A stretch of DNA of 64,000 bases, from positions 11,229 through 75,228 of the forward strand of contig JAEKLQ010000032.1 of NCBI GenBank assembly GCA_019509785.1. Direction: 5' to 3'. This DNA comes from Fibrobacterota bacterium (lineage in GTDB: Bacteria > Fibrobacterota > Fibrobacteria > UBA11236). Made by a program: the position numbers and the translations under genes. This document shows positions 8,185-31,929 of this stretch, piece by piece. Position 1 is the first letter of the stretch, and each line of letters begins with the position of its first letter. Under the pieces are notes generated by a model. The model worked only from the letters and a program-made list of their open reading frames with translations. It made no database searches and was not told the origin of the DNA.

Positions 8185-10497
8185 ATGGCTGGAACGCATA
8201 AATGGACTTTTTTCCGGGCGGGTGGCTTCGATCAGGTCAAGCTCACCACCGGAGCCGATTTGAGGAACCTCGATCAGCTCGATCAGAAGCTATGGGTGGC
8301 CTTGGCGTGCCCCACGCGCGGCTTGGAGATAGAGTCGCGCACCCTGGAGTTGATCGACACGGACGGGAACGGCCGGGTGCGCGCGCCGGAACTGATCGCG
8401 GCGGCCCGTTACGCCACGGACAACCTGAAGCGCCCCGATGATTTGTTCAAAGGCGAGGACGGCTTGCCCCTCGAGGCCATCAATGACTCCACCCCGGAGG
8501 GCCGCACCTTGGCTTCTTCGGCCCGGCAAATCCTGCGCAATATCGGGAAGGCGGACGCGGCGGCGGTTACGGTAGCCGACGTATCCGACAAAACCCGTCT
8601 CTTCGCCGGAACCCCGTTCAATGGCGACGGAGTCATCACCGAACTTTCCGCCCCGGACGAATCGGGCAAGGCCATCGTCCGCGAGATCATGGATTGCGTC
8701 GGCAGCGTTCCGGATCTTTCCGGGCAGCCGGGCATCGGCAAGGATCAGATCGAGGCTTTCTTCGCGGAGGCGCGGGCCTACGCGGCTTGGCTGGCCGAAG
8801 CCGAGACCGGGCCGGGCACCGCGAAGGTTTTCCCGCTGGGCAAGGACGCCACCATCGCGGCGGTCGCGGCGATGGAAGCCGTGCGGGCGAAGTGCGACGA
8901 TTATTTCGCGCGTTGCCGCCTGGCCGCGTACGATCCGCGCGCCGAACAGGCCCTCAATCGCCGCGAAGAAGAGTACCTGGATTTCGCCGCGAAGGATCTG
9001 ACGTTGACCGCATCCGAAGTGGCCGGCTTCCCGCTGGCCCACGTGACCGCCGGCCGGCCCCTTCCCTTGACGGGCCCGGTCAATCCGGCCCATGTCGATG
9101 CCCTGAAACGTTTCGCAGAAGCTACGGTCGCCCCGGCCATCGGGGCGCGCAAAGAGCTCTCCGAAGGCGATTGGCTTTCCCTGCAGGACCGCTTCGCGCC
9201 CTATAAGGAATGGGATGCGGGAAAGGCGGGCCGCAAGGTGGAAAAGCTGGGCGAAGCCCGTATCCGGGCCTTGTTGGCATCGGGCGCGCAAGCCACCGTC
9301 GAGTCCCTGCTGGCCCAGGACGAGAATCTCAAGGCGGAGACCGCCGGCATCGAGCAGGTCGAACGCTTGGCGAGGTACTACCGCGATCTCGCCTTGCTCT
9401 GCATCAACTTCGTGAGCTTCAAGGATTTCTACGACGGCCAGGATCCCGCCATCTTCCAGGTCGGCACCTTGTTTCTCGATCAACGCGCTTGCCGGTTATG
9501 CCTGCGCGTGGAGGACCCGGCCAAGCACGCGCTGATGGCCGGATTGGCGGGGGCCTACCTCGCCTATTGCGATTGCGTTCGGAGCGTCACCGGGGAGAAG
9601 ATGCAAATCGTGGCGGCCTTCACGGCCGGCGACGGCGACAACCTGATGGTGGGCCGCAACGGCCTGTTCTACGATCGCAAAGGCCAGGATTGGGACGCCA
9701 CCATCGTGAAGATCGTGGACAATCCCATCAGCATCCGCCAGGCCTTCTGGTCCCCGTACAAGAAATTCCTCCGCTATCTGGAGGAACAGGTCAACAAGCG
9801 CGCCGCCGCCGCGGATGCCGAAGCGCATGCCAAGCTGGCCACGGCCGCGGTGGTCGCCGTCAATCCGGATGCGACGAAACCGCCTCCCCCTCCGCCGCCC
9901 GAGCCGAAGAAGATGGACGTGGGTACGGTGGCCGCCATCGGCGTAGCCGCCGGCGCCATCGGCACCTTCGCGACCGCCCTCGTCGGCCATGCCCTGGGCA
10001 TCTTCCAGATGGGAATCCTAGCCACCCTGGGCGCCCTCATCGGCTTGATGCTCCTGATTTCCCTTCCCTCGGTGGTGATGGCCTACATGAAGCTGCGCAA
10101 GCGCAACCTCGGCCCCATCCTGGATTCGAACGGATGGGCGGTGAATTCCAAGGCCAAAATCAACGTTCCCTTCGGCGCCACCCTGAGCAGCATCGCCAAA
10201 CTCCCGCCGGGGGCGCGCCGCGACTTCAGCGATCCCTACGCGGAAAAAGCCTTCCCGTGGAAACTCGTGGCGACCGTCCTGCTCCTCATTTATTGCGCCT
10301 TCCATTGGTACGTGGGAGGATTCGATACCGTGCTCCCCGGCATGGCCCGGTCCACCGCGGTGCTCGGCAAATGGGCGCCCAAGCAGACCTCCGTCCCGAA
10401 TGGCGCGACCCCGGGAGCGGCCGCATCATCTCCCACGCCTGCGCCACCCCCGCCGCCCGCGGTCCCAACACCGGCGCCGGCCCCAGCGGCGCCGTAA
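8185..10497 (+). CDS. large hypothetical membrane-anchored protein with N-terminal EF-hand Ca-binding loop, polyproline tracts and C-terminal TM helices
   Basis: The EF-hand loop is IDTDGNGRVRAPEL (DxDxNGxxxxxE). There are PPPPPPPEP and PTPAPPPPPAVPTPAPAPAAP tracts. Two to three strongly hydrophobic helices lie near residue 600-720. Confidence 0.6.
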   Translation: MAGTHKWTFFRAGGFDQVKLTTGADLRNLDQLDQKLWVALACPTRGLEIESRTLELIDTDGNGRVRAPELIAAARYATDNLKRPDDLFKGEDGLPLEAINDSTPEGRTLASSARQILRNIGKADAAAVTVADVSDKTRLFAGTPFNGDGVITELSAPDESGKAIVREIMDCVGSVPDLSGQPGIGKDQIEAFFAEARAYAAWLAEAETGPGTAKVFPLGKDATIAAVAAMEAVRAKCDDYFARCRLAAYDPRAEQALNRREEEYLDFAAKDLTLTASEVAGFPLAHVTAGRPLPLTGPVNPAHVDALKRFAEATVAPAIGARKELSEGDWLSLQDRFAPYKEWDAGKAGRKVEKLGEARIRALLASGAQATVESLLAQDENLKAETAGIEQVERLARYYRDLALLCINFVSFKDFYDGQDPAIFQVGTLFLDQRACRLCLRVEDPAKHALMAGLAGAYLAYCDCVRSVTGEKMQIVAAFTAGDGDNLMVGRNGLFYDRKGQDWDATIVKIVDNPISIRQAFWSPYKKFLRYLEEQVNKRAAAADAEAHAKLATAAVVAVNPDATKPPPPPPPEPKKMDVGTVAAIGVAAGAIGTFATALVGHALGIFQMGILATLGALIGLMLLISLPSVVMAYMKLRKRNLGPILDSNGWAVNSKAKINVPFGATLSSIAKLPPGARRDFSDPYAEKAFPWKLVATVLLLIYCAFHWYVGGFDTVLPGMARSTAVLGKWAPKQTSVPNGATPGAAASSPTPAPPPPPAVPTPAPAPAAP

Positions 10498-10572: not shown

Positions 10573-11559
10573 ATGAGACGACAAGCTCCGATTCCCCTCG
10601 GTGCGGCGGCGGAATCGGATAGATCCCCGGGCCTTCCGGCATGGCCCGATGCATGGCACGTGGTGGTGCGAAGCGCGGACCTACCCCCGGGAAAAGTCCG
10701 GAGCCTTCCCCTCGCGGGACGGGAGCTGGTGGTCTTCCGTACCGCGGCCGGTTCCCTCGGCGCCTTGGATGCCCATTGCCCCCATATGGGCGCCCATCTC
10801 GGCTGCGCCGCCGTGCAAGGCGGAAGCCTGGTATGTCCGCTCCATGGCTTCGCATTGGATCCCTCCGGCGAAGTTCGCGCGCCCGGCGAACTAGGCGGCG
10901 GCTCGCGTCCAGGCACCCGCGCATATCCGGTGACGGAAGCTTTTGGCCTCGTCTTCGTCCATCCGGGCGGGGACGTTTCGCCGGCAAGACCGCCTCCGCA
11001 ACCTGCCGCGGGCATGCGATGGCTGGCCGGGAGACCGCTTCGCTTGCGCGCCGACTGGCGCCACGTGGTGGTCAATGCCTTCGACCTCCTGCATATGCGC
11101 TCGGTCCATGGCCGCGCCTTGACGGGCCCGGCCCGCATCGAGTCGAAGGACGGCGCCTTGGCCATGAGCTATGAAAGCGGGGTATTGCCGCTGTCCGGGA
11201 CGGCAGGGTATATCACGCGAAGATTGTCGCGGAACCGGATCAAGGTCATGCAAACGTGCTACGGCCCATGGCTCATGGTCGAAAGCACGGTGGGGCCCAT
11301 CCGGACTTGCGCCGTGTTCGGCCTCTTGCAGGAAGGCGAATACCTGCGGGTCTTCAATGCCTTCGGAACCGCCCGCCGCGACCCCCTGGCCCGCTGGGGG
11401 CTCCACCTCATCCGCCTCTTCTACTATGCCTTTCTCCGGAAAGACTTCGCCATCCTGGAAGGCATGCGTCTGCGGTTCGCGCATCCGGAAGACGAAGGCG
11501 TAGCTGCCATAACGGCCTATCTGGAATCCTTCCGCGACCTGGAGCCTTCCGAAGGATGA
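10573..11559 (+). CDS. Rieske non-heme-iron oxygenase (PAO/KshA-like, single-subunit type)
   Basis: The Rieske motif is CPHMGAHL...CPLHGF. The mononuclear-iron motif DLLHMRSVH (DxxHxxxxH) is present. The stop overlaps the next start (ATGA). Confidence 0.75.
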   Translation: MRRQAPIPLGAAAESDRSPGLPAWPDAWHVVVRSADLPPGKVRSLPLAGRELVVFRTAAGSLGALDAHCPHMGAHLGCAAVQGGSLVCPLHGFALDPSGEVRAPGELGGGSRPGTRAYPVTEAFGLVFVHPGGDVSPARPPPQPAAGMRWLAGRPLRLRADWRHVVVNAFDLLHMRSVHGRALTGPARIESKDGALAMSYESGVLPLSGTAGYITRRLSRNRIKVMQTCYGPWLMVESTVGPIRTCAVFGLLQEGEYLRVFNAFGTARRDPLARWGLHLIRLFYYAFLRKDFAILEGMRLRFAHPEDEGVAAITAYLESFRDLEPSEG

Positions 11560-13439
11560 TGGTCGCCCGGAGGAAGGCCGGCATGGATGGCATGGATGGT
11601 CTGCAACGGCCGGAGAAACTTAATCTCCTCCTCATATCGTCTGCCTCGGTCGCGAGCGCCGCATGCCTATGGATGGCTTCCCATGCGCGTGGGTGGATAC
11701 CGATGCTCTTGGCCGCGTGGATCTTCTCTTTCACGGCCAATACCTTGTTCTCCTTGCTCCATGAAGCGGTCCACGGATCGTTCTCCGCGCGGCGGCCGCT
11801 CAACGAATGGGCCGGCAGGGCGGCCTCGGCCTGGTTCCCGACGGGCCTTTCGGTGCAAAGGGCCTTCCACTTGACCCATCACCGGTTCAACCGGTCCCGC
11901 TTCGAGCAATTCGATGTCCTGCATCCGGGGGACAAGGTGTGGCTGAAATACGCCCAATGGTATTCCATTTATACCGGCCTCTATTGGGCCTTCGCCGTTG
12001 CCGCGGCGGCCCTGTTCACCTTGGCGCCGGGATCCCATCGTTGGCGGGTCTTGCGCGATCGTAAAGATCCCGATGCGGCGCAAACCGGATCCGCCGTCTA
12101 CGCCGAAGCCTTGGAAGGAGCGCCCCCGGTCAAGGCCCGTTCGGAAGTCTTGCTCTCCTTCGCCTTCCAGGTATTTCTCTTCTGGTCCCTGGGGCTCTCG
12201 CTCCGGGGTTGGGCCGCATGCTATGGCGCCTTCGCGTTGCAATGGAGCTGGCTGCAATACACCGATCATGCCTTTTCCCCGCTGGATGCCAAACGTGGCG
12301 CGTGGAATTTGCGCGTCGGTCCCTTAGGCAGGGCCTTCTTCCTCGACTACCACCTCCATCTCGCCCATCATCAGCATCCGCAAGCCCCGTGGAACCGCCT
12401 CCGCCACCTGATCGATGGCGCAACCCCGCGGCCTTCCTTTTTCCAAGTGTTCCGCGCGGCAATTGCGGGTCCTCGTAGGGAGGGGGAGTTCCCGGACTTC
12501 GCAGCGGCGCGTGGCCCGGGGTTCCTCGTCATCGCGGAAGCGGAAGCGATGTGCCTCGCGGACTTTTTCCGTTTCGGCCTAAGGCATGTCCGCTATTGGG
12601 GCATAGCCGCGGTGATCTTGTTGGACAGCATGCGGAGTTGGCGATCGCGGCGTGCCTTGCGTCTGGGCTTCGCCTTCCTGCAGCGGATAGATGATTTGCT
12701 CGACGGCCATCGGCCCGCGCCGCGCGAGCCCCTGCATATCGCGCGGAGCCTGGCGACGGCCCTCTGCGGAGGGGCGGGGGACGATCGGGATGCGGCCTTG
12801 ATCCGCATGGCGCGCCTCCTCGCCGCCGACTTGGGCGCGCTCGCGGGCGAGGAAGGTCCGTGCAAGCTGGCGGAAATCCTGAACGTGATGTCCTTGGATC
12901 GCCAACGGGTCATGGAGGGCGCGATTTGGGATAGCGAGGAATTGCAACGGCATTTCCGGAGCACCTTCCGTTTATCCCTGGATCTCCTGCTTATGGCGCG
13001 GGGGTCGGATCTGCGCTCCGCTGATCTGCCGGACCTGGCGGATGCGCTGGCATGGTGTTCGGTGGCCAGGGATCTGCGGGAAGACTTGCGCGGCGGCTTG
13101 ATTAATATTCCTCGCGAGGTGCTGGAGGTCGGCAGGGAGGGCCGGACCGGGCCTTTCGGAGAGACGACCGCGGATGATGCCAATGTGAAGGCGTGGCTCG
13201 CGGAAGAGCATGCCCGGGCCTCGGGCTTGTTGGATCGTCTGGAAGGGAACCTGGCGCTTCTGGATGCGCGTTGCCGGAATTCCGATCGCGGCCGGGGGCT
13301 TCTGCCGCTCAGCATGTTCACGCGATCCCTCCGGGATTTCCATCGCCGGCGTTTTCCGCGCCTGTACCGCTCTTCACGGATTCCGGCGATCGCTCCGAGC
13401 CCTGCGACCGTGCCGCAACCGGCCGCAGCCAGGGCATAG
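11556..13439 (+). CDS. fusion protein: N-terminal membrane fatty-acid-desaturase/hydroxylase-family domain + C-terminal squalene/phytoene-synthase-like (head-to-head prenyl synthase) domain
   Basis: The His boxes are HEAVHG, HLTHHRF and HLAHHQHPQAPW. The C-terminal half carries FAFLQRIDDLLD (cf. PSY RRxDDLVD) and SVARDLREDLRGGLINIPREVLE (cf. NILRDVGEDxxRGRxYLPxDEL). The start was trimmed to the ATGATG at 11556, which is coupled to the upstream stop. Confidence 0.7.
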   Translation: MMVARRKAGMDGMDGLQRPEKLNLLLISSASVASAACLWMASHARGWIPMLLAAWIFSFTANTLFSLLHEAVHGSFSARRPLNEWAGRAASAWFPTGLSVQRAFHLTHHRFNRSRFEQFDVLHPGDKVWLKYAQWYSIYTGLYWAFAVAAAALFTLAPGSHRWRVLRDRKDPDAAQTGSAVYAEALEGAPPVKARSEVLLSFAFQVFLFWSLGLSLRGWAACYGAFALQWSWLQYTDHAFSPLDAKRGAWNLRVGPLGRAFFLDYHLHLAHHQHPQAPWNRLRHLIDGATPRPSFFQVFRAAIAGPRREGEFPDFAAARGPGFLVIAEAEAMCLADFFRFGLRHVRYWGIAAVILLDSMRSWRSRRALRLGFAFLQRIDDLLDGHRPAPREPLHIARSLATALCGGAGDDRDAALIRMARLLAADLGALAGEEGPCKLAEILNVMSLDRQRVMEGAIWDSEELQRHFRSTFRLSLDLLLMARGSDLRSADLPDLADALAWCSVARDLREDLRGGLINIPREVLEVGREGRTGPFGETTADDANVKAWLAEEHARASGLLDRLEGNLALLDARCRNSDRGRGLLPLSMFTRSLRDFHRRRFPRLYRSSRIPAIAPSPATVPQPAAARA

Positions 13440-13441
13440 CG

Positions 13442-15076
13442 ATGAAGTTCCCCTACCTGGCGAATGCCGCGTGGAGCCTCGCCAGCCGCCCGGAAGCTTT
13501 GGCTTTCGAGCGTGGCCTCCGCGACGTGGAGACGGTCCAGCGGGCGCTCCTGCGGGACCTGCTGGCGCGCAACCGTGACAGCGGATACGGAAAGGAGCAC
13601 GGCTTTTCCACCCTCGTCCATGCCGAGGCCTATCGCGACCGGGTACCCGTGGCGGATTATGACGACATGGAACCCTGGATCCGCCGGGCCGCCCGGGGCG
13701 AGAAGGCCCTGACGGCGGAGAGCGTTCTGGTGCTCGAACCGACCGGGGGCAGCCAGGGCGGCAGCAAATGGATCCCCTATACCGCATCGCTCCGCAAGGA
13801 ATTCCGGCGGGGCCTGGCCCCCTGGATCCATAGCATGTTCCGTCGTTTCCCGGCGGCGATGCGCGGCACCGCCTATTGGTCGCTTTCGCCGCCCCTGCAA
13901 CGCGAACCGGGCTTCGAGTATTCGGTAAAGGCCGGCTTCGAAAGCGATGCGGATTACCTGGGGCCCCTCGGGCGCATCCTGGAAAGCCAAGCCTTCGCCG
14001 CGCCGTCCTCGGTGCTGCGGGAAAGGAACGCCGATGCCTTTTTCCATCTCACCGCATCGCACCTGTTGGCGTCGGAGGATCTGGCTCTCATTTCGGTGTG
14101 GAACCCTACCTTTCTCGCCTTGCTGCTCGACCGCATCCGCGCGGATCGGGAAAGCCTGCTGCGCGGCCTCCGCGACGGCGGGAGGGGCGCCCGCGCCCGG
14201 ACGGTCGCAAGGGCATTGGACGGGAGCGAGGACAGGGCCTGGATCGGAATATGGCCCCGCCTCGCCTTGATCAGCTGTTGGCGGGACGGCTGGGCCGCGG
14301 GCCCTGCGGATCGTTTGGCGGAATTTTTCCCCGGAGTCGCCTTCCAGGCCAAAGGCCTCCTGGCCACCGAAGCCCTGGTTTCCTTGCCCTGGCATGTTCC
14401 AGAAACGCTATCGGAAAACGGGAAGGAAGACGGGAGGGAAGACGGGACGTATGGCGCGCCCCTTCACCTTCTCAATTATCGCGGGCACTTTTTCGAATTC
14501 CTCGACGTCGAATCCGGTAAGACCCGTTTCGCCTGGGAGACCAAGGCTGGGGGCGTCTACTCGGTGCTGGTCACGACCGGCGGCGGGCTATACCGGTACC
14601 GGCTGCGCGATCTCGTGCGTATCGAAGGTTTCCGCTCCGCCTGCCCGGCGGTGCGTTTCTTGTCGAAGGAAGAGTCGTTCTCGGATCTGACGGGAGAGAA
14701 ATTGCAATCGGATTTCGTTCAGCATTGCGCGGAGCAGGCGTTAGCCGAGGCCGGGATCGGCACGGTCTTCTATCTGCTGGCGCCGGAGCCGGATGCGACG
14801 CCGCCCCGCTACGCCTTGCACGTCGGGCTGGAAGGGGATTCGCGGGCCAGCGCCCTGGAGGCCCGCCTGGAAGCGGCCTTGGAAGGGAACTTCCAATACG
14901 GCCTTAGCCGCAAGCTCGGGCAATTGGCACCAGTCCGAGTGGTGCCCGCCGGTCCCGGCGCGGAAAGTCGATATTACTACTATAAGGGCTTACGCGCGAA
15001 GTTGGGGGATATCAAGTGGAAGCCGTTGGAAAGCTCAGGCCCCTGGGCGGACATCCTGCGATCGAAACATCCATGA
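13442..15076 (+). CDS. GH3-family acyl-acid amido synthetase-like adenylating enzyme
   Basis: The motifs VQRALLRDLLARNRDSGYGKEHGF, VPVADYDDMEPWIRRAARGE and VLVLEPTGGSQGGSKWIPYT match GH3 (PF03321) signatures. The ATG at 13442 is 2 nt after the upstream TAG. Confidence 0.7.
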   Translation: MKFPYLANAAWSLASRPEALAFERGLRDVETVQRALLRDLLARNRDSGYGKEHGFSTLVHAEAYRDRVPVADYDDMEPWIRRAARGEKALTAESVLVLEPTGGSQGGSKWIPYTASLRKEFRRGLAPWIHSMFRRFPAAMRGTAYWSLSPPLQREPGFEYSVKAGFESDADYLGPLGRILESQAFAAPSSVLRERNADAFFHLTASHLLASEDLALISVWNPTFLALLLDRIRADRESLLRGLRDGGRGARARTVARALDGSEDRAWIGIWPRLALISCWRDGWAAGPADRLAEFFPGVAFQAKGLLATEALVSLPWHVPETLSENGKEDGREDGTYGAPLHLLNYRGHFFEFLDVESGKTRFAWETKAGGVYSVLVTTGGGLYRYRLRDLVRIEGFRSACPAVRFLSKEESFSDLTGEKLQSDFVQHCAEQALAEAGIGTVFYLLAPEPDATPPRYALHVGLEGDSRASALEARLEAALEGNFQYGLSRKLGQLAPVRVVPAGPGAESRYYYYKGLRAKLGDIKWKPLESSGPWADILRSKHP

Positions 15077-16083
15077 TACCCCTGCCTACCATGGCCACCG
15101 CGCCGACGGCCCAGGAAAAGATCCGCGGCATCCGCGAGGATCTTGCCTTCGGATGCGAAGCCCGCCTTCGGGATCTGCATGCCCTGGACGCGCGCCTGCA
15201 CGCGCGCTACGCCCTCTTCCCGGCCTTGCTCGCGGCGGGACTTCTGCTTTCCGCATCGGCCCTGCGCGGGCTGGAGATCGCGTGGCCGCGCTACGCCGCC
15301 GGCGTTCTGCTCGCCGCTCTGGGGATGAACAGCTGCTTTCTCCTTATCCATGAGGCCGTACACGGGATCCTGTTCCGGAACCCGGCCTGGAACCGGCTGG
15401 CGGGCGTCCTGCTTGCGGTCTGCGGCGGCATGGCCTTCAGCGCTTACCGTTTCCTCCACCTCCGCCACCATGAATTCCTGGGCGATCCCAGGGACCCCGA
15501 TGACTACGCCAACTATTCGCGCAGCCCGCGCCTCGTCTGGCTCATGCATTTCGTCCGCTTGGGGCTAGGCACGGTCCTCTACGTCTTCGCCATCCCCGTG
15601 GTTTCCCTGCGCCATGCCCCCGCGGCCGATCGCCGCGCCATCCTCGCGGAATACGCCTTGCTCTCGATCCTCATCCCCGCCGTGCTGTGCCTGGTTTCCC
15701 CCGGCAAGATCCTGGCCGTCTGGGGCGCGCCCTTCCTCCTGGCGAATTGGATGATCAATATCCGGGGCTTCTCCCAGCACGGCATCGCCGAGGCTTCCGA
15801 TCCGTGGCTAGCCAGCCGGTCCACCGTTCCGCATCCCCTGGTGCGGTTCTTCCTCATCAACGAGAACTTCCACCTGGAGCATCATCTTTTCCCCGGCGTA
15901 CCCGGCTATCGCCTCGCGGAATTGCACGTCCTGTTGCGCCCGCATATCCCGCGCCGCTTGCTCTGCCGTTCCTACGCGTCCTTCCTGGCCGCCTTCCTGC
16001 GGCAAGCGCCCCGCATGGACGAACATCCCATCGGCCTTACCTTCCAATCGGTCCAGGGACGCGATGGAGGAAGGTGCCTATGA
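15073..16083 (+). CDS. membrane fatty-acid desaturase family protein
   Basis: The three His boxes are HEAVHG, HLRHHEF and HLEHHLFP. The start overlaps the upstream stop (ATGA). Confidence 0.75.
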   Translation: MIPLPTMATAPTAQEKIRGIREDLAFGCEARLRDLHALDARLHARYALFPALLAAGLLLSASALRGLEIAWPRYAAGVLLAALGMNSCFLLIHEAVHGILFRNPAWNRLAGVLLAVCGGMAFSAYRFLHLRHHEFLGDPRDPDDYANYSRSPRLVWLMHFVRLGLGTVLYVFAIPVVSLRHAPAADRRAILAEYALLSILIPAVLCLVSPGKILAVWGAPFLLANWMINIRGFSQHGIAEASDPWLASRSTVPHPLVRFFLINENFHLEHHLFPGVPGYRLAELHVLLRPHIPRRLLCRSYASFLAAFLRQAPRMDEHPIGLTFQSVQGRDGGRCL

Positions 16084-17420
16084 TGGCCGGCAAGATCCGC
16101 ATCGCCTTGCTCTCCCCCAAAGGCCCGCTGTACAAGCACAAGACCGGCATCTTCCGCAAGTCCCTGCGGGTGGCGCCCTTGACCTTGACTACCTTGGCTG
16201 CGCTGATCCCGGAAGACGTACCCGCCGAGTTACGCCTGATCGACGAAGGCGTGGACGATATCCCCCTGGATCTGGATGCCGACCTGGTGGGGATGACCGT
16301 CATCACCGGATCCTCCACGCGCGCCTACGAACTCTCCGCACATTTCCGCTCCCGCGGCATCAAGGTGGTGCTGGGCGGTCCCCACGTGACCCTGGTGCCG
16401 GACGAGGCTTCCCGGCACGCCGACAGCATCGTCACCGGCTATGCCGAAGAGACCTGGCCCGAACTGCTGCGGGATTTCAAGCGCGGGAAAATGCGGCCGC
16501 GCTATTCCCAGTCCCCGTCCTTCTCCCTGGCCACCCCAGGCAACCATCCGTTTCCGCATCGGCATCTCCTGCCCAAGTCCATGTACAAGACCCGCAACAC
16601 CTTCGAGGCCACCCGGGGTTGCATCCATGCCTGCGAGTTCTGCGTGGTGCCCACGGCCTGGGGCCGCAAGCCTTTCCACAAGCCCGTGGGCCAAGTGGTA
16701 GAGGATATCCGCCGCACCGGCGCGAAGCACCTCGTTTTTTACGACCTCAACCTCATCGCCGATCCCGAGTACGCCAAGGAACTGTTCCGGGCCCTGATTC
16801 CGCTCAAGGTGCAATGGTTCGGGCTCTCCACCACCTTCGTCAACCGGGATCCGGAGCTGCTGGATCTGACGGCGAAAAGCGGATGCATGGGCTTGCTGGT
16901 GGGCTTCGAGAGCGTGAGCCGCGCTTCCCTGGCGGCGGTCAAGAAGGGCTTCAACAAGCCGGACGACTATCCTGGCTTCATCCGCGAATTGCACGGGCGG
17001 GGCATCGCCCTCATGGGCACCTTCGTATTCGGCTCCGACGGGGATACGCCGGACAGCTTCGCCGAGGTGGTGGACTTCGTGCAGGAGCATAAGATCGACC
17101 TGCCGCGTTATAGCGTTATGACCCCTTTTCCTGGTACACCGTTGCATACGCGCCTGGAAGCGTCGGGCCGCATCCTCACCAAGGATTGGAGCCAATACGA
17201 CGGCCAGCACGTGGTGTTCCAACCCAAGCAAATGACCGCCAAGCGATTGCAAGAAGGCCATGAATGGGCCTGGAAGCGAACTTACAGCCTCAAGCACGTG
17301 GCGGGTCGCATGCTGCGCATCATGCCCCATTGGCCCCTCATCCTCACGGCCAATTTCGGCTATCGGTTCTACGCCCACAACCTGGGCCGCTTCTATACTT
17401 GCCAAGGCGGGCTGGTATGA
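16080..17420 (+). CDS. cobalamin(B12)-binding radical SAM protein (class B rSAM)
   Basis: There is an N-terminal B12-binding-like domain (VGMTVITGSSTRAYELSAHFRSRGIKVVLGGPH). The rSAM cluster is TRGCIHACEFC (CxxxCxxC). The ATGATG start is coupled to the upstream TGA. Confidence 0.8.
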   Translation: MMAGKIRIALLSPKGPLYKHKTGIFRKSLRVAPLTLTTLAALIPEDVPAELRLIDEGVDDIPLDLDADLVGMTVITGSSTRAYELSAHFRSRGIKVVLGGPHVTLVPDEASRHADSIVTGYAEETWPELLRDFKRGKMRPRYSQSPSFSLATPGNHPFPHRHLLPKSMYKTRNTFEATRGCIHACEFCVVPTAWGRKPFHKPVGQVVEDIRRTGAKHLVFYDLNLIADPEYAKELFRALIPLKVQWFGLSTTFVNRDPELLDLTAKSGCMGLLVGFESVSRASLAAVKKGFNKPDDYPGFIRELHGRGIALMGTFVFGSDGDTPDSFAEVVDFVQEHKIDLPRYSVMTPFPGTPLHTRLEASGRILTKDWSQYDGQHVVFQPKQMTAKRLQEGHEWAWKRTYSLKHVAGRMLRIMPHWPLILTANFGYRFYAHNLGRFYTCQGGLV

Positions 17421-18838
17421 ACAAGATCCGCCTTACCATCGTCCACCCGTGCATCGGCCGCAAGCCCGGGGTGGAGTATATCCGCTCTTGGCAGATGGAG
17501 CCCCTGCCCGCGGCCTATCTGGCGGCCCTGGCGGCGCCGTACGCGGACATCTCGTTCCATGACGATCGTATGGAAGCGATCCCTTACGACGAGCCCGCGG
17601 ACCTGGTGGCTATCAGCGTGGAGACTTATACCGCCAAACGGGCCTACCAGATCGCCACCGAGTATCGCAAACGCGGCGTGCCAGTGGTGATGGGCGGCTT
17701 CCATGCCACCCTCATCCCCGAAGAGGTGATGGAATACGCCGAGGCCATCGTGATCGGCGAAGGCGAGCAGCTTTTCCCCAGGCTCCTGGAAGACTTCCGG
17801 GCAGGCCGGATGAAACGCGTGTATCGCGCCGAAGGGAGATCCGAGATCGGATCCATCCGTCCCGACCGTTCCATCTTCGCGGGCAAACGATATCTCAAGA
17901 TCGGGCTGGTGGAGGCGGCCCGGGGTTGCCATTTCAAGTGCGACTTCTGCGCCATCACCACCTACTTCGGCGCCACCCAGAGCCGCCGCCCCATCGACAA
18001 CGTGATCGCGGAGATCCGATCCATCAAGGACGGCCGCAAGCTCTTCTTCTTCGTGGACGACAACATCGTCTCGCATCCCAAGTGGGCCAAGGAGTTCTAC
18101 CGGGCCCTCATCCCCCTGAAGATCCGCTGGGTAAGCCAGGCCACCCTGACCATGGCCCAGGACAACGAGTTGATGGATCTGATGAAGCGGAGCGGCTGCC
18201 AAGGCGTGCTCATCGGCTTCGAGACCCTGGACCCTGCGAACCTGAAGGCCATGAACAAGCGCTTCAACGAAGTGAAAGGCGGCTTCCCCGCCGTCATCTC
18301 CAAGCTGAACCGCCACGGGCTCCGCCTCTACGCCACCTTCATCTTCGGCTACGACGCCGACACGCCCGAAAGCTTCGCGCGCACCGTGGCCTTCTGCAAG
18401 GAGCAGAACATCTTCATGGTCGCCTTCAACCATATCACCCCTTTTCCTGGTACGCAGTTGTACAAGCGCCTGGAAAAGGAAGGCCGGCTTCTCTACGGCA
18501 AGTGGTGGCTGGACGACCGCTACCAATACGGACAGGTGCCATTCAAGACCGTCCTGCCGCCGGAACTGATCCAGGAAGAATGCGTCAAGGCCCGCAAGAG
18601 CTTCTACAGCCTCGGCTCCATCCTGAAGCGCCTCCGCAACCGGGCCAATACCGGCAGCCTGTTCATGTTGCGCTCCTATTTCTTCATCAACTTCCTCCTG
18701 GGCAAGGAAGCCTCCCAGCGGGAGAACTATCCCTTGGGAGATGCCTCCTGGCGCGGGACCATCCTCAAGGCGGACGAGGACAGCCTGCGGCGCGCGGGCG
18801 TGATTCCTGAGATTCCCGCCATGCAGGCCGCGGAATGA
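17417..18838 (+). CDS. cobalamin(B12)-binding radical SAM protein (paralog of previous)
   Basis: The rSAM cluster is ARGCHFKCDFC. The architecture is the same as the upstream gene at about 45% visible identity. The overlap is ATGA. Confidence 0.8.
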   Translation: MNKIRLTIVHPCIGRKPGVEYIRSWQMEPLPAAYLAALAAPYADISFHDDRMEAIPYDEPADLVAISVETYTAKRAYQIATEYRKRGVPVVMGGFHATLIPEEVMEYAEAIVIGEGEQLFPRLLEDFRAGRMKRVYRAEGRSEIGSIRPDRSIFAGKRYLKIGLVEAARGCHFKCDFCAITTYFGATQSRRPIDNVIAEIRSIKDGRKLFFFVDDNIVSHPKWAKEFYRALIPLKIRWVSQATLTMAQDNELMDLMKRSGCQGVLIGFETLDPANLKAMNKRFNEVKGGFPAVISKLNRHGLRLYATFIFGYDADTPESFARTVAFCKEQNIFMVAFNHITPFPGTQLYKRLEKEGRLLYGKWWLDDRYQYGQVPFKTVLPPELIQEECVKARKSFYSLGSILKRLRNRANTGSLFMLRSYFFINFLLGKEASQRENYPLGDASWRGTILKADEDSLRRAGVIPEIPAMQAAE

Positions 18839-19977
18839 AACAGGTAGGAAAGGCCATCGACTCCGTTCCGGTCCTCGACCTCCACACCGTACGGGAAGCC
18901 GTTCCCGGGGACGACGCTTCCATCCGCGCCTTGTTGCGGCGTTCCCCCATGCCCGGGGATATCCGCATGGCCTTTACCCGGGAGCCCTCTTTCTTCGCGA
19001 GCCTCGAGGTTGAGGGGAAGGCGGGCCGGGCCGCCGTCGCCGAGGCCCTGGACGGCGCTATACGGGGGCTTATCGTGCGCAACGAGAAGGAAGCCTGGGT
19101 GAACGGAAACCCCATGCCCCTAGGCTACCTGAGCGGCCTACGCGTGGAGCCGATCCCGGATCGGGTGGTCGTCCTCCGGCGAGGCGCCGATTTCATCCGG
19201 CGCTGCCATGGGGAAGGCCGCGCGCGCATCTATCTCCAGACCGTCACCGAAGGGAATCGCAAGGCCGCGGCCCTGCTCTCCGCCGGGCGCCTCGGCATGC
19301 CCCGCCTCAAGGATCTGGGCGGCCTGCATACCTTCCTGCTGTCCCCTTCCGTATCACGCAAGTTACCGAACCTTCTCGGTTACGAAGTGCGGGCCGCCTC
19401 CCGGAACGATATCCCGGAGGTGATCGCTTTCCTTGGGGGCGAAGGGGCCCGCCAATTCTTCCCTTGCTACCGACCGGAGGATTTCGGCCCCCGGGGCGGA
19501 CTTCTCAAGGGCCTTTCCGCCGGCGACGTGCTCCTTCTGACCCGGGACGGCAGGCTGGCAGGAACTTTAGGCCTTTGGGACCAGGAGCCCTGCAAGCAAA
19601 GTTTCATCGCCGGCTACGGCCCCGCTCTCAATCGCATGCGGCCCTTCTATAATCTGCTGGCCCGCTTCCGGTCCCGTCCCGGCCTGCCCGCGGCCGGCGC
19701 AACCGTGCGGCATCTCAAGGCCGCCTTGCTCCGGATCGAGGGGGATGATGCCGGAGCTTTCGCCGTCCTCCTGAAGCATGCGTTGTGGAAGGCGCGCGAA
19801 CGGTCTTTGCCCTTGGCCATCATGGTCCACGAGCGCGATCCCTTCCTGCCCGTCCTGCGCGCCTTGCCTTCGGTGGCCTATGCCAGCCGCCTCTTCGCGG
19901 CTTATTTCGAGGATGGCCGGGAACTGGCGGAATCCCTGGACGGCCTCGTGCCGTACGTGGAATTGGGGGCGCTTTAG
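18835..19977 (+). CDS. hypothetical protein, possibly tandem acyl-CoA N-acyltransferase (GNAT/FemAB-like) fold
   Basis: It is a 380-aa ORF with strong codon bias, coupled to the upstream gene (ATGA). It matches no family confidently, so the fold is a guess from the composition pattern. Confidence 0.4.
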   Translation: MKQVGKAIDSVPVLDLHTVREAVPGDDASIRALLRRSPMPGDIRMAFTREPSFFASLEVEGKAGRAAVAEALDGAIRGLIVRNEKEAWVNGNPMPLGYLSGLRVEPIPDRVVVLRRGADFIRRCHGEGRARIYLQTVTEGNRKAAALLSAGRLGMPRLKDLGGLHTFLLSPSVSRKLPNLLGYEVRAASRNDIPEVIAFLGGEGARQFFPCYRPEDFGPRGGLLKGLSAGDVLLLTRDGRLAGTLGLWDQEPCKQSFIAGYGPALNRMRPFYNLLARFRSRPGLPAAGATVRHLKAALLRIEGDDAGAFAVLLKHALWKARERSLPLAIMVHERDPFLPVLRALPSVAYASRLFAAYFEDGRELAESLDGLVPYVELGAL

Positions 19978-19978: not shown

Positions 19979-20722
19979 ATGGCTCTCCGCGGCGAAACCG
20001 TCCCGGTGGAACAACTCCAGACCGAGGAAATCCGGCGCATGTTCCTGCTCCTGGACCGGCACTACGCCAACGCCAGTTGGGAAGGATTCCGGGAGGACCT
20101 GGCGGAGAAGACCTGGGTGATCCTCCTCAAGGACGGGGATGAGTTGGCCGGATTCTCCACCCAGCTTCTGATGGAGACGCGCTTCGAGGGAGAACTACTT
20201 TCCGTGGTCTTTTCCGGCGATACCATCATCGATCCCGCCCACTGGGGATCGCCGGAGCTGCAAACCAGCTTCGCGGCCCTATTGGATCGCCTCCACCGGG
20301 GGAGGCCGGATCGCAGGCTGTTCTGGTTCCTCATCTCCAAGGGCTTCCGTACCTATCGCATCCTGCCCATCTATTTCCTGGACTTCCACCCTCGCCATGA
20401 CGTCCCCGTTCCGCCCTGGCACCGCCGCTTGCTCGATCACCTGGCGCAGACGAAGTTCCCGGCAGCCTATCGGCCCGAGCGGGGCATCTTGGATTTCAAC
20501 GGGCATTCCCAATACCTGCGCCCGCCGCTGAGCGTCATCCCGGAAGCGCGCATCATGGCCAATCCCCATATCCGTTTCTTCGCCGAGGCCAACCCGGGAT
20601 GGGCCCGGGGCGACGAATTGGCCTGCTTGGCGGAATACGCCCCGCATAATCTCACGCCGTACCTGAGGCGGCGTCTGCCTTCCATGCGCCGGAACCAGCC
20701 GGCCGCGCTTCAGGAAGGATAA
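19979..20722 (+). CDS. hypothetical GNAT-like N-acyltransferase
   Basis: WVILLKDGDELAGFST...LLSVVFSGDTIIDPAHWG resembles a GNAT beta-strand plus acyl-CoA-binding region. The ATG lies 2 nt after the upstream TAG. Confidence 0.4.
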   Translation: MALRGETVPVEQLQTEEIRRMFLLLDRHYANASWEGFREDLAEKTWVILLKDGDELAGFSTQLLMETRFEGELLSVVFSGDTIIDPAHWGSPELQTSFAALLDRLHRGRPDRRLFWFLISKGFRTYRILPIYFLDFHPRHDVPVPPWHRRLLDHLAQTKFPAAYRPERGILDFNGHSQYLRPPLSVIPEARIMANPHIRFFAEANPGWARGDELACLAEYAPHNLTPYLRRRLPSMRRNQPAALQEG

Positions 20723-21822
20723 CGGAATGCGGAAAAGAATCGTTCCCACCGCCCGGCTACCAAGGCTTTGACCCGGGATTCCAAAGGATGCAGATCATTC
20801 GTCCGGTAGGATTTTACGGTAGCCAGGTAGCCCTCCAGGAACGGGCCGGCCGCGCCGAAGGGCCCGTACCCCAAGGCCCCGTACATCCGCTCCAGCTCGC
20901 GCAAGGGATCGGCCGCCAGATCCTCGTAGCGCATCTCATGCAGCCGCCCCGGCGGGATCAGGTTCCGGTCCGCCAGATAGGCGTCGTTCACGGTCTCGTA
21001 CCGTTGCAGGATGTCCTCGTCCACTTCGGCGGGATCCGGGCTCTGGAGGTACATGTAGGGGAACAGGGTCGCGATGGTATGCCGCGAGCTCTTGAACACG
21101 GCGTAGGGGTCCCGCACGATATGCACGAAACGGGCATCGGGAAAGAGCTCCAGCAGAAGCGGGATGCGGGCCGTATGGGCCGGGGACTTGAACGCCAGGG
21201 TCCTGGCCCCATGGCGCCAAGCCAGCTTGCGGGCGAAGCGGCCGAAGGCGTCCTGCCATTCCTTCGCGGCGCCGGCCTCGGCCTCCTTGAAGGTGAGGTA
21301 ACGCGCATAATACCTCCGGTTCGCGGGGAAGCTCACCCCGCAGTAGGGGGAGCGGCCGGTCATCAGGGCCATGGCGAACTCGTCCTCCGCGGGGGAGCCG
21401 GCGGAAAGGGCCATGCCGTCCATCGGACGGGTCTTGGGGATGAAGAACCTCAGGATGGGAGCCAACCATCCTTCCGTGAGGAGGAAGGTTTCCGGGCTCA
21501 TGACTTGGAGCGTGTTGGGGCAGGCGAAGCGGTCCCGGTCCGATGCCAAGAGGTATTGCAGATGGGTCGTGCCCGCGCGCCAATGGCCCAAGACGAAAAG
21601 GGGCGGCTTCGGGGCCGGAGTCGATGCCACCTTAGCAGCGTACAACCCGCGCTCCACGCGGGAGACCAAGCTGTTAACGAGGGCGGCCGAGGTTACCGCC
21701 GCGGCGCGGTGCCAGTAACGCGGCTCCACCTTCCATCGGTTCTCCTTGAGCAGCCGCAACCACGCGCGGAAACCTATCCCGTACAAGTAATTATTCGCGA
21801 GACTTATCTTTCTGCTATCCAC
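20710..21822 (-). CDS. PAPS-dependent sulfotransferase family protein
   Basis: The 5'-PSB loop is LGHWRAGTTHLQYLL, followed by a later RDP motif (HIVRDPYAVFKS). The start is GTG at 21820-21822. Confidence 0.7.
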   Translation of the reverse strand: MDSRKISLANNYLYGIGFRAWLRLLKENRWKVEPRYWHRAAAVTSAALVNSLVSRVERGLYAAKVASTPAPKPPLFVLGHWRAGTTHLQYLLASDRDRFACPNTLQVMSPETFLLTEGWLAPILRFFIPKTRPMDGMALSAGSPAEDEFAMALMTGRSPYCGVSFPANRRYYARYLTFKEAEAGAAKEWQDAFGRFARKLAWRHGARTLAFKSPAHTARIPLLLELFPDARFVHIVRDPYAVFKSSRHTIATLFPYMYLQSPDPAEVDEDILQRYETVNDAYLADRNLIPPGRLHEMRYEDLAADPLRELERMYGALGYGPFGAAGPFLEGYLATVKSYRTNDLHPLESRVKALVAGRWERFFSAFRYPS

Positions 21823-21857
21823 CAGCGCCTTCCAACTTGATCCGTAAGGGAATATCC

Positions 21858-22658
21858 ATGAAGAAACTCCTGCTTCCAGCCGTCCTTCTTTGCCTCGCGG
21901 CTTTCACCGGCTGCAAGGACTACCATTATGTAAAAGTCGCCCAGGTGTTGCCCGTGGGCAAAACGTCCGGTCTCACGCCGGATGAACGGCAGGCGGACTC
22001 GCTGATGAAAGCGCTGGTCTCCAACCAGGCGGCCGTGGATCGCTTCCAGAAGATGTTCAAGTGCGCGGTCCTCGAGATCATCGATTTCGACAGTCTCACC
22101 TTCACGGTAAAGATAAACGCGGATTCCGCCGGCGCCGGTCACGCCAAGGCGGAATATTCCCTGGGAACGGATCCGGCCGCCAAGCCCGATCTGGTCTTGC
22201 CTATTTACCGCAAGAACCTGTCCAACCTCCTCCAGATCTTCGCCGACAATACCGTATCCGATGAAGAGGCGTACCGCATCCACCGGGCCGTCTTCGGATC
22301 TTCCCTGAGGTCCCTCTTCCAAGTGCCCGCCCTGTACGATCCGAAGATCGCCAAGCATCTGGCGCTGCCCAACTTCATCCAGATGACCCTGAAGAACGAG
22401 GGGAATTATGAATTCATGGGATCCAAGAAAGAAGCCGTGGTGACCATCGTCAACGTGGACGGCCAGTGGCTGGTGACGCAGGGCGCCTACGGCGATCCGG
22501 AAGTGAAGTGGGCCGTTACCCCCAAGCAGTTGGCGGATTTCACCCGCCTGGTATTCGAGCCCGGCAAGGGCGCCGCCACCTCCATGAGCGCCGCCCGGGC
22601 CCGCCTCAAGGAGATCAAGGCCTTCATTGACGGCATCACGGTTTATCGTCGGGGCTGA
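21858..22658 (+). CDS. lipoprotein of unknown function
   Basis: The signal peptide MKKLLLPAVLLCLAAFTGC carries a lipobox. AAGGGA lies before the ATG. Confidence 0.6.
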   Translation: MKKLLLPAVLLCLAAFTGCKDYHYVKVAQVLPVGKTSGLTPDERQADSLMKALVSNQAAVDRFQKMFKCAVLEIIDFDSLTFTVKINADSAGAGHAKAEYSLGTDPAAKPDLVLPIYRKNLSNLLQIFADNTVSDEEAYRIHRAVFGSSLRSLFQVPALYDPKIAKHLALPNFIQMTLKNEGNYEFMGSKKEAVVTIVNVDGQWLVTQGAYGDPEVKWAVTPKQLADFTRLVFEPGKGAATSMSAARARLKEIKAFIDGITVYRRG

Positions 22659-22664: not shown

Positions 22665-23351
22665 TTGGCCGAATTCCTCGTATACCTGAACCGGGTCGTC
22701 TGGTCCCTGGCCGGTTTCCCGGTCATGGCCTGGCTGTGGTACCGGCACGGCGGGGCCAGTGTTCCCTTGGCCGCCATCGTGCTCGGCATCCCGCTGGTCT
22801 TCGGCTATCTCATACCCGGATTGGCCATCCTGTGGCTGCGCCTCTGGGAGATCAACTCCAGGTTTTCCTATAAAGGCATCCAGATCCACCAAGGCTTCAT
22901 CTATGCCTCGGGCCTGTCCCTGGACGCTTACGCCGCCCACCATGTGCGCTTCGCCTCCCCCTGGGCCACCGTGATCGTGTCTTGCCTGCTCACGGGGTGC
23001 ATCGTCGGCTTCACGGGATGGTTCATCGATATCGCCGGGGTCAAGGCGGGCCGTATCCGCATCGATAATCCCCCCGCCCGGGCGGGCCGCGACCCGGCCA
23101 CCATCGTGACCTATTACGCTCCCGCGTGCTATTTCACCCTGGGCTTCTGCTACATGTTGGCGGTCCATTTGGTTTGGGCCTTCCTGGGCCCGGCCGCCCC
23201 GGGACTACCGGGTAACCTTCGAGATACGGTAACTCCCGGGTCACCATCGGCCTTTGCCATAGCCGCGTTGTACGCCGCAGGCTTTCTCCTCACCGCCGCT
23301 CCCGCCGGCGCGCTCTACCTTTACCTGCAAAAGAAGGGCCGGTCGGTTTGA
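22665..23351 (+). CDS. integral membrane protein of unknown function
   Basis: It has five to six hydrophobic helices. The start codon is TTG. Confidence 0.45.
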   Translation: MAEFLVYLNRVVWSLAGFPVMAWLWYRHGGASVPLAAIVLGIPLVFGYLIPGLAILWLRLWEINSRFSYKGIQIHQGFIYASGLSLDAYAAHHVRFASPWATVIVSCLLTGCIVGFTGWFIDIAGVKAGRIRIDNPPARAGRDPATIVTYYAPACYFTLGFCYMLAVHLVWAFLGPAAPGLPGNLRDTVTPGSPSAFAIAALYAAGFLLTAAPAGALYLYLQKKGRSV

Positions 23352-24715: not shown

Positions 24716-25583
24716 GCCGCCCGGCCTTCTCTTCCTTGGCTTCGCGGCTGCCCTTCTGGCGGCCCTGCACGCCGGCGCCTTCGCCGCATTCTTCCATTTC
24801 GAAGCCGGGTTCTTCCTGGCCGCATTGCTCCTATGGCAGGCCACCGGCATACTGGGCGTCTCCGTCGGTTACCATCGCTTACTTAACCACCGCAGCTTCG
24901 AGTGCCCGCGTCCTATCAAATGGGTCTTGCTGTTCCTGGCCGGACTGGCGGGCCAATTGGGTCCCATCCGCTGGGTGCGCGTGCACCGTTTCCACCATGC
25001 CCACAGCGATACGGATCTGGATCCGCATACGCCCCGCCGCGGTTTCTGGTTCGCGCATCTGGCCTGGCTGTTCCAGGCAGGCCGCCGCGGGAATGAACCG
25101 GCGCTTCAGGAGCCTCCGGCCGATCTACTGGCCGATCCGGACTGCCGCTTTTTCGAACGGGCCTATCCCTTCCTGTTCTACGGCTCGCTCGCCGCCATCG
25201 GGTGGGGGTGGGGTTGGGCCGGCTTCCTCTGGCTCGGGACCTTCCGCTTGGCGGTTACCTTGCATAGCATCCTGAGCATCAACTCGGTCGGGCACGTCTT
25301 CGGCCGACGCGATTTCGACCTGCCGGACGACAGCCGGAACCTCCGCCTCTGGGCCGCCTTCACCGGCGGCGAAGCGCTCCACAACAACCACCATGCCCAT
25401 CCCCGCAGCGCCCGCTTCGCCTGCCGCCCCTGGGAACCGGACGCCGGATGGTTGGCCATCCGATCCCTGGCCGCCTTAGGACTGGCCTGGAACGTCCGCT
25501 ATTACGATCCCGTTACCGGCAGCCTGGCCATCCTCCGCCCCCGACCGCAATCGATCCCGCTTCCCTCGCCGGCCGGAACCTAA
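24708..25583 (+). CDS. acyl-CoA (delta-9-type) fatty acid desaturase
   Basis: The motifs HRLLNHRSF, HRFHHAHSDTDLDPH and NNHHAHP are present. The gene overlaps the P450 gene by 8 nt. Confidence 0.8.
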   Translation: MLKPPGLLFLGFAAALLAALHAGAFAAFFHFEAGFFLAALLLWQATGILGVSVGYHRLLNHRSFECPRPIKWVLLFLAGLAGQLGPIRWVRVHRFHHAHSDTDLDPHTPRRGFWFAHLAWLFQAGRRGNEPALQEPPADLLADPDCRFFERAYPFLFYGSLAAIGWGWGWAGFLWLGTFRLAVTLHSILSINSVGHVFGRRDFDLPDDSRNLRLWAAFTGGEALHNNHHAHPRSARFACRPWEPDAGWLAIRSLAALGLAWNVRYYDPVTGSLAILRPRPQSIPLPSPAGT

Positions 25584-28440: not shown

Positions 28441-28705
28441 GGAGGATTCCTTTCCGATCAGGATGAGGCGCGGAACCGTGCAGCGGAAAACAGCACGGCG
28501 GGCCGCGCATCAAGGAAAAAATCCTTCCCCGAGGCATGGCACTATCCGCGCGGGCCTGCAAATCCCGGAAGCTTCCGTTCCGCCGCCACTGAATTCCGGG
28601 TGTTTAGCGGGATGCTGCAAATCCGGGAGGATGCGCGTCTAAAAGGGGGGATCGCATAGGTAACACTCAAGTTACCTGTCCGGGTTCCCCGCCTGCGAAG
28701 GCCAT

Positions 28706-28741: not shown

Positions 28742-28773
28742 ATACTTCGGAACGGGATCCGCTATGCGGAAGA

Positions 28774-31897: not shown

Positions 31898-31929
31898 GTT
31901 TAGCCAGCGTTTCCGCAAAAGGAGGGTGT

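Follow-up and report, generated by a model that had tools for sequence, protein, structure and literature searches.

What would a membrane-bound fatty-acid-desaturase-like enzyme gain from carrying, on the same polypeptide, a domain that resembles the squalene and phytoene synthases (SQS/PSY)? The question arises from a 64,000-nucleotide stretch of DNA from a Fibrobacterota bacterium (GenBank assembly GCA_019509785.1, contig JAEKLQ010000032.1, positions 11,229 to 75,228; hereafter the window), in which a preliminary description had noticed such a fusion gene and considered its domain pairing unfamiliar. We find that the fusion is one form of a gene module that is conserved and scattered horizontally and comprises a Rieske oxygenase, the desaturase, a PAP2-like domain, the SQS/PSY-like domain (hereafter C-domain) and, often, a SnoaL/DUF4440-like protein. 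The reading of the fusion that we favor, with a probability of about 0.5, is that of a Mg2+-dependent, prenyl-diphosphate-ionizing accessory domain tethered to a pair of oxygenases.

The fusion gene

The open reading frame (ORF) encoding the desaturase domain and the SQS/PSY-like domain occupies positions 11556-13439 of the forward strand and consists of 627 codons and a stop in a single open frame with zero internal stops. Its ATG overlaps the TGA of the upstream Rieske oxygenase ORF as ATGA. One automated gene call begins at an alternative ATG at 11583, nine codons later, yielding a product of 618 amino acids (aa), and because of this difference the 627-aa product has no exact-sequence match; the start at 11556 is matched in an 85 % identical ortholog, which likewise begins MMA.RRKAG. 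The initial impression that no frameshift or stop separates the two halves holds: in an independent assembly (L086) both the Rieske ORF and the fusion ORF are base-for-base identical to those of the window, and two proteins from other metagenomes (P0001 and P0002), 84-85 % identical, show the same two-domain layout. Furthermore, the ratio of nonsynonymous to synonymous substitution rates (dN/dS) relative to locus L004 is 0.13 for the N-terminal domain and 0.28 for the C-domain; purifying selection acts on both. The identical independent assemblies, the fused orthologs and the selection on both halves rule out an artifact of frameshift or misassembly that joined two genes. We read the locus as one intact gene for a predicted bifunctional membrane protein, and the domain identities of both halves discussed below are highly probable.

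The desaturase half

The N-terminal half (residues ~15-315; 11598-12500, forward strand) is predicted, from the Pfam match, the hydropathy profile and the invariant histidines, to be a bona fide di-iron domain of the FA_desaturase family with the full set of histidines. The Pfam FA_desaturase model (PF00487) matches residues 46-284 with 76.6 bits (E 3.4e-21), above its gathering threshold of 29.7 bits, and four hydrophobic segments are apparent at residues 22-42, 50-68, 138-156 and 196-216. The three histidine boxes previously reported in the N-terminal ~300 aa are indeed all present: HEAVHG (residues 69-74, with H69 and H73; 11760-11777), HLTHHRF (residues 105-111, with H105, H108 and H109; 11868-11888) and HLAHHQHP (residues 268-275, with H268, H271 and H272; 12357-12380), all identified by motif and alignment. 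The eight box histidines, which follow the HX3-4H, HX2-3HH, H/QX2-3HH pattern, are invariant in an alignment of 29 homologs (A1), as are D237 and H238. None of the NCBIfam desaturase, ketolase and hydroxylase models was matched by the N-terminal domain, even at E 0.1, and the domain therefore appears to represent a distant branch of the FA_desaturase superfamily. With the characterized oxygenases of this family, such as acyl-lipid desaturases, CrtW/CrtR and GntB, it shares the three histidine boxes and the four hydrophobic helices. Unlike them, the fusion-type desaturase is typically paired with a Rieske oxygenase, and we know of no such pairing for characterized members of the family.

The SQS/PSY-like half

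The C-terminal half of the protein is not hydrophobic. It comprises a predicted soluble, all-helical domain (residues ~341-605; 12576-13370, forward strand) with the class I isoprenoid-synthase fold, assigned to a divergent clade of SQS/PSY. The Pfam SQS_PSY model (PF00494) aligns with residues 363-600 over profile positions 18-250 of 263; the score is 19.1 bits (E 1.2e-3) when the entire protein is searched and 20.6 bits when the domain is searched alone, with a cut-off of 26 bits. Thus, of the two assignments initially proposed, a Pfam search secures that of the N-terminal half and leaves that of the C-terminal half below threshold. When family members were scanned one by one, SQS_PSY was the only recurrent Pfam family (14 of the 21 members matched, best E 6.7e-13). 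An AlphaFold2 model of the C-domain, generated from a 21-sequence alignment, contains 12 helices and has a predicted local distance difference test score of 91.7 and a predicted template modeling score of 0.87; Foldseek searches seeded with this model retrieved class I terpenoid-synthase folds only, in agreement with the isoprenoid synthase fold originally suggested, the closest structures being HpnC, CqsB4 and CrtM.

Both Asp-rich motifs recognized in the preliminary description are in place, as judged by motif and alignment. The first, QRIDDLLD, spans residues 376-383 (12681-12704, forward strand; D379, D380, D383) and the second, ARDLREDLRGGLINIPREVLE, residues 504-524 (13065-13127, forward strand; R505, D506, E509, D510, G514, N517, P519). 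D379, D380, D383, R505, D506 and D510 are invariant in the 29-sequence alignment and position 509 is E or D; further invariant positions are R343, R346, Y347, Q376, D448, R451, W500, C501, G514, N517 and P519. Altogether, about 20 additional positions of the C-domain are invariant across sequences that are only 27-49 % identical. The motifs are collinear with D48/D52 and D172/D176 of CrtM (reference sequence 100 % identical to PDB 4e9u), with a spacing of 127 versus 124 residues. For residue mapping, and not as evidence of homology, we used an hhalign comparison of the C-domain family with the single CrtM sequence, in which the second motif alone was aligned (probability 0.3 %), and an unfiltered hmmsearch, in which both motifs were collinear at negative scores. 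In these motif-anchored alignments, which are not significant on their own, R45, Q165 and N168 of CrtM map to Q376, A499 and S502, respectively; Q376 takes the place of R45 within the first motif, and at the Q165 position the C-domain has A or G. The three CrtM positions are conserved in head-to-head synthases.

The distance from characterized enzymes is also evident at the level of families. The only equivalog model matched by the C-domain was that of HpnD, with 15.7 bits against a cut-off of 278.6, whereas the CrtB, CrtM, HpnC and Sqs equivalog models were not matched. Among 1.84 billion representatives, the C-domain profile reaches 544 clusters formed at 50 % identity (E up to 1e-3; 201 at 1e-30) and canonical SQS/PSY proteins are beyond its reach. 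PDB sequence searches with the protein P0020 and with the N-terminal domain gave no meaningful match. We rejected a canonical CrtB/HpnD identity for the C-domain, given that no functional equivalog was matched, that CrtI/HpnE is missing among the annotated recurring neighbors (see below) and that the CrtM residues are replaced. According to these models and profiles, the C-domain is a small, well-separated clade of the SQS/PSY fold (head-to-head trans-isoprenyl diphosphate synthases) in which both putative Mg2+/diphosphate-binding motifs are kept. It is probably a catalytically competent, diphosphate-binding domain.

The Rieske partner

Immediately upstream of the fusion gene, positions 10573-11559 of the forward strand encode a Rieske non-heme-iron oxygenase of 328 aa (Pfam Rieske, E 6e-16). 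Its matches in PDB sequence searches, to KshA, SxtT and DdmC, extend through the mononuclear-iron motif. Across 74 homologs, conservation reaches at least 90 % at C69, H71, C88, H91, D171, H174, H179, D291 and D307; the first four are the ligands of the Rieske cluster and D171, H174 and H179, together with D291 or D307, those of the mononuclear iron. Because both sets of ligands are conserved and the likeness to KshA, SxtT and DdmC runs through the catalytic motif, the protein is likely an oxygenase in its own right; the conserved D171, H174 and H179 and the distal Asp rule out that it only passes electrons to the desaturase in the manner of a ferredoxin. Of 85 loci, 72 have a Rieske homolog no more than 10 kb away from the desaturase; in 51 it is located directly upstream on the same strand.

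In the independent assembly L086, an automated call (positions 2180-2725, corresponding to 11014-11559 of the window) retains only the final 181 aa of the Rieske protein and places a 54-aa gene on the other strand. The ORF of 328 aa is intact there and identical to that of the window, so that the public annotation hides the Rieske partner.

A module with interchangeable architectures

A scan with one genome per species found 171 relatives, and 80 loci were kept. For a census of architectures, domain-specific hidden Markov models were run over all ORFs of 85 loci and of the window. The predominant form, found in 35 loci, is a desaturase gene followed by a separate gene for a PAP2-C-domain fusion. 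All three domains are fused in 7 loci and encoded by three separate genes in another 7, and desaturase and C-domain are separate genes without PAP2 in 6. The domain order of the window, a direct desaturase-C-domain fusion, indeed recurs in other genomes (6 loci, the window counted). In 11-14 loci desaturase and PAP2 are present without the C-domain and in 8-10 the desaturase stands alone. Split forms cannot be attributed to sequencing errors: in the isolate genomes of L021, L026, L033, L039, L040 and L067, the desaturase stop shares an ATGA or GTGA with the start of the following gene at the split junctions.

The same picture emerges when viewed from the C-domain. Among its best 150 cluster representatives, ~80 are stand-alone proteins of 270-300 aa, ~55 are PAP2-C-domain fusions, ~6 desaturase-C-domain fusions and ~3 three-domain fusions. 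The usual fusion partner of the C-domain is therefore the PAP2-like domain and not the desaturase, and the pairing that had appeared unfamiliar is rare and not unique. In one case the C-domain is joined at its C-terminus to a cytochrome P450 (P0193, 675 aa; L088, 1788-3815); the gene directly follows a SnoaL-like gene and a stand-alone desaturase gene, the P450 standing where the Rieske oxygenase usually does. The repeated, independent fusion and fission of desaturase, PAP2 and C-domain, and once of P450, is a strong sign that these proteins act on the same molecule.

The PAP2-like domain matches PAP2_3; the PSLH and S-T-x5-H-x3-D motifs are kept and the KxxxxxxRP motif is absent. Six putative helices were counted by eye in the PAP2 insert of P0016. 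The SnoaL/DUF4440-like protein recurs in ~30 loci, and its copy in L001 has, by eye, a hydrophobic N-terminus and C-terminus. Neither a PAP2 domain nor a SnoaL-like gene was found anywhere in the 64-kb window, whose copy of the module thus does without the usual middle domain.

The module is spread over more than 10 phyla, host commensals included. It was identified in Neisseria, Kingella, Myxococcus, Corallococcus, Archangium, Pyxidicoccus, Thiobacillus and Roseateles as well as in Acidobacteriota and Thermoanaerobaculia, Vulcanimicrobiota, Gemmatimonadota, Verrucomicrobiota, Planctomycetota, Elusimicrobia and a metagenome-assembled genome (MAG) of Selenomonadaceae. In myxobacteria and in Neisseria sp. 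HSC-16F19, it is confined to the Rieske, desaturase, PAP2, C-domain and SnoaL parts. One of the loci (L085, BNCN01000004.1), labeled 'Comamonas sp. KCTC 72670', has a G+C content of 70 % and the gene sizes and gene order of Myxococcus sp. Y35 (L021), so that the organism label looks doubtful.

Two absences bear on function. The C-domain is missing from 19-25 loci, among which L036, L056, L057, L066, L074, L077, L081 and L082 are otherwise complete, with the full set of GH3, GNAT and radical S-adenosylmethionine (SAM) genes described below. Furthermore, no amine-oxidase (CrtI/CrtN/HpnE) or polyprenyl-/prenyl-diphosphate-synthase family was found among the annotated recurring neighbor families of the 85 loci, in which singleton ORFs are partly unannotated.

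Accessory or backbone-forming?

The fungal fusions of lycopene cyclase and phytoene synthase (CrtYB, AL-2, CarRA) likewise combine an N-terminal polytopic membrane tailoring domain with a C-terminal domain of the PSY fold. They are the closest architectural analog of the window protein, differing in that their N-terminal domain is a lycopene cyclase rather than a di-iron oxygenase and their PSY domain is canonical. Among bacterial enzymes, HpnC (hydroxysqualene synthase, PDB 4hd1), HpnD, CrtB and CrtM are, like the C-domain, soluble proteins of ~270 aa with an all-helical class I fold, a DDxxD first and an RDxxED second motif and equal spacing between the two; the DDxxD form is typical of these four rather than of Sqs (PMC7306690). 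In contrast to them, the C-domain is sub-threshold in sequence, has a PAP2-like domain, a di-iron desaturase or a P450 as its fusion partner or neighbor, and has no CrtI/HpnE-type oxidase among its annotated neighbors.

This resemblance makes a genuine head-to-head synthase the first alternative to be weighed. In such a case, a CrtB/CrtM/HpnD-like C-domain would condense two molecules of farnesyl diphosphate (FPP) or geranylgeranyl diphosphate (GGPP) to a C30 or C40 backbone, and oxygenation of this product would fall to the di-iron domain and the Rieske oxygenase, much as CrtW/CrtR act on carotenoids. SQS_PSY being the sole Pfam family matched and both Asp-rich motifs being invariant are consistent with this scenario, as is the fact that the FA_desaturase family includes CrtW and CrtR, to which a second desaturase in the cluster shows weak matches. 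The placement of the C-domain argues otherwise: its HpnD score is a small fraction of the cut-off, the other four models are unmatched, its profile stops short of canonical SQS/PSY, and R45, N168 and Q165 of CrtM are replaced by Q376, S502 and A499. The module is also present in Neisseria and Kingella, which to our knowledge are not known for hopanoids, and many full clusters lack the C-domain. CrtI/HpnE-type oxidases usually neighbor hpnC, hpnD and crtB/crtM genes (PMC7306690), but neither these nor CrtN are among the annotated recurring neighbors here. We consider a backbone-forming synthase unlikely because otherwise complete clusters lack the C-domain, because no CrtI/HpnE or prenyl-diphosphate-synthase neighbors are annotated and because the three CrtM residues are replaced. 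For the C-terminal half, 'condensation or binding' had been suggested; condensation has become the less likely option, given the distance from every head-to-head equivalog and the many otherwise complete clusters without the domain. An accessory or tailoring role is the more probable one.

Precedents for such a role exist within the fold. HpnC ionizes presqualene diphosphate and yields hydroxysqualene (PMC7306690). NzsG and CqsB4, which have the SQS/PSY fold and both Asp-rich motifs, prenylate carbazole, a non-isoprenoid acceptor, before hydroxylation by the P450 NzsA (PMC7466098). NzsG/CqsB4 (PDB 7vwt, 7vws) resemble the C-domain in having two Asp-rich motifs, and in their pathway prenyl transfer is followed by an oxygenase step, an order of events that the fusion may parallel. 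They share only 13 % identity with the C-domain and are soluble enzymes of actinomycete secondary metabolism encoded in carbazole clusters, whereas the module includes no carbazole genes and its partners are membrane proteins. Finally, YisP of Bacillus subtilis, an SQS/PSY-fold enzyme without condensation activity, converts FPP to farnesol (PMC10148934). This enzyme (PDB 3we9) sets an example of hydrolysis by the fold, a role that would agree with the recurrent partnership of the C-domain with PAP2. YisP is not known to have the second Asp-rich motif, which is invariant in the C-domain family of the fusion.

The reading that we favor can be outlined as follows. Since the C-terminus of a four-helix desaturase is cytoplasmic, the C-domain would lie at the cytoplasmic face of the membrane, beside the di-iron centre; in the three-domain forms, the six PAP2 helices would keep it cytoplasmic, with the PAP2 motifs facing outward. 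There it may bind, via Mg2+, and ionize a lipid diphosphate, for which an allylic prenyl diphosphate is the most likely candidate. Rather than being used in head-to-head backbone synthesis, the resulting cation would be captured either by water, as in HpnC and YisP, or by an acceptor, as in the prenyl transfer catalyzed by NzsG/CqsB4, and we make no choice between the two. The same hydrophobic molecule would be hydroxylated or desaturated by the di-iron domain, to which the C-domain is tethered, and by the Rieske oxygenase, whose translation is coupled to that of the fusion; the fusion would serve to hand over this hydrophobic intermediate between active sites.

The extended cluster

In the window, the fusion gene is followed by a set of genes on the same strand. 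Those for the GH3, the two B12-radical-SAM, the 380-aa and the 247-aa proteins each accompany the module in 24-40 of the 85 loci, with the window included. The first (13442-15076) encodes a protein resembling GH3-family acyl-acid amido synthetases (Pfam GH3, GH3_M and GH3_C; weak OlsH match) that is found in 34-35 of the loci. It is followed by a second FA_desaturase-family protein (15073-16083; Pfam E 1.5e-36, gene call in L086) with weak NCBIfam similarity to GntB, CrtR and CrtW, the best match being the arginine hydroxylase GntB; tblastn matches to it in other loci mostly overlap the fusion-type desaturase, and a separate conserved copy is thus not supported. Next come two B12-binding radical SAM proteins, both identified by Pfam and gene call (16080-17420, in 24-25 loci, and 17417-18838), a 380-aa tandem-GNAT acyltransferase-fold protein (18835-19977) that lacks a Pfam match and has a counterpart of 100 % identity in a Fibrobacteres bacterium MAG, and a conserved 247-aa protein (19979-20722) that is GNAT-like by eye only, matches no Pfam or NCBIfam model and recurs in 37-38 loci. 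By analogy, the presence of the GH3 and tandem-GNAT proteins hints that the extended pathway involves an amide-linked (N-acyl) moiety.

An alpha/beta-hydrolase (Peptidase_S9/DLH-like) directly follows the PAP2 gene in six loci, five of them alphaproteobacterial (e.g., L036, 11480-12778, reverse strand). The synthesis of ornithine lipids uses the GH3 enzyme OlsH and the alpha/beta-hydrolase OlsI (PMC12493201), of which the GH3 protein and this recurring hydrolase are reminiscent; we regard the parallel as a lead, not a result.

Further downstream are a Sulfotransfer_3 sulfotransferase (20710-21822, reverse strand), two small ORFs without family (21837-22658 and 22665-23351), a P450 (23348-24715) and a third FA_desaturase-family gene with similarity to the DesA family (24594-25583). 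None of the 85 loci contains a counterpart of the sulfotransferase or of either small ORF; one has a counterpart of the third desaturase and five to six have one of the P450.

These genes bring up the second alternative, a natural-product cluster that makes an amino-acid-derived, prenylated small molecule instead of a membrane lipid, with the C-domain prenylating a soluble acceptor and the 'desaturase' hydroxylating it. The P450, sulfotransferase, GH3 amide ligase, GNAT-fold proteins and B12-radical-SAM enzymes that the window adds would fit such a cluster, as would the GntB match of the second desaturase and the Rieske protein, which is as similar to SxtT and SxtDIOX as to KshA. However, every protein of the minimal core found in myxobacteria and Neisseria is located in the membrane or anchored to it, the PAP2-like domain is polytopic, the module extends over more than 10 phyla including host commensals, and few loci share the added genes (P450 in 5-6 loci, sulfotransferase and third desaturase in none or one). 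A natural product of this kind is accordingly improbable.

Two features around the cluster are mentioned for completeness. Upstream, an ORF of 770 aa (8185-10497, forward strand) with a proline-rich stretch and C-terminal hydrophobic segments has no significant Pfam match; it is kept at 95 % identity directly upstream of the cluster in L004 and L005 and is absent from all other loci. Downstream, just beyond hisG, three consecutive ORFs (27094-33938, reverse strand; 448, 1031 and 473 aa) encode proteins with Ig-like domains of the ASH/Cep192/HYDIN type and are apparently unrelated.

Weighing the favored reading

The third and least probable alternative, a catalytically inactive C-domain that binds lipid or diphosphate, regulates or scaffolds and so positions the desaturase or PAP2 domain on its substrate, would account for the replacement of several CrtM-conserved residues, for the dispensability of the domain in many clusters and for its higher dN/dS (0.28 vs 0.13), but is hard to reconcile with the strict invariance of D379, D380, D383, R505, D506 and D510 and of ~20 more positions at 27-49 % identity, and with the occurrence of the domain as a stand-alone protein of 270-300 aa in about half of the top 150 representatives.

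Several points weigh against a prenyl-diphosphate-ionizing accessory domain as well. The SQS_PSY similarity of the window copy is sub-threshold (19-21 bits vs 26), the C-domain family profile finds no solved SQS/PSY chain in a PDB sequence search, and the replacement of CrtM-conserved residues could also mean that catalysis was lost. With no gene in the cluster that would supply a prenyl diphosphate, it is the fold that points to a diphosphate substrate, and the cytoplasmic location of the C-domain and the periplasm-facing PAP2 site are deduced from hydropathy and general knowledge. Enzymes of the FA_desaturase family can act on soluble amino acids, as in the GntB family, so that a lipid substrate is not certain. 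In the literature, we found no published characterization of the fusion or of the module, and likewise no biochemical data for its members.

Implications

The proteins described here are known folds in an uncharacterized but conserved combination, with a C-domain clade that includes no characterized member. Automatic annotation in IMG already names the fusion 'fatty acid desaturase/phytoene/squalene synthetase', and the NCBI name is 'fatty acid desaturase'; the latter alone hides two of the three domains found in these proteins. The SQS/PSY fold is the textbook backbone-former of the sterol, hopanoid and carotenoid pathways, with few exceptions (HpnC, YisP, NzsG/CqsB4). A distinct clade of this fold whose members are linked, in five or more interchangeable architectures, with O2-activating enzymes or a PAP2-like membrane domain points to chemistry that has not been described for the fold.

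A tentative extension, to which we give limited credence, is that the C-domain family constitutes a new functional class of SQS/PSY-fold enzymes that, with the PAP2-like, di-iron and Rieske partners, prenylates a membrane lipid or makes a prenol for it. If so, this could be an undescribed class of oxygenated or prenylated lipids in diderms as diverse as Neisseria, Kingella, myxobacteria, Acidobacteriota and Fibrobacterota, possibly including an amide-linked lipid that the GH3 and GNAT-fold enzymes assemble in the extended clusters. Given that the 171 species-level genomes with the module include those of culturable and genetically tractable bacteria, such as Myxococcus, Corallococcus, Neisseria elongata ATCC 25295 and Roseateles, its product and physiological role are directly testable. 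The module thus offers a solid lead, open to testing, toward isoprenoid-lipid chemistry that may be new, in bacteria amenable to genetics.

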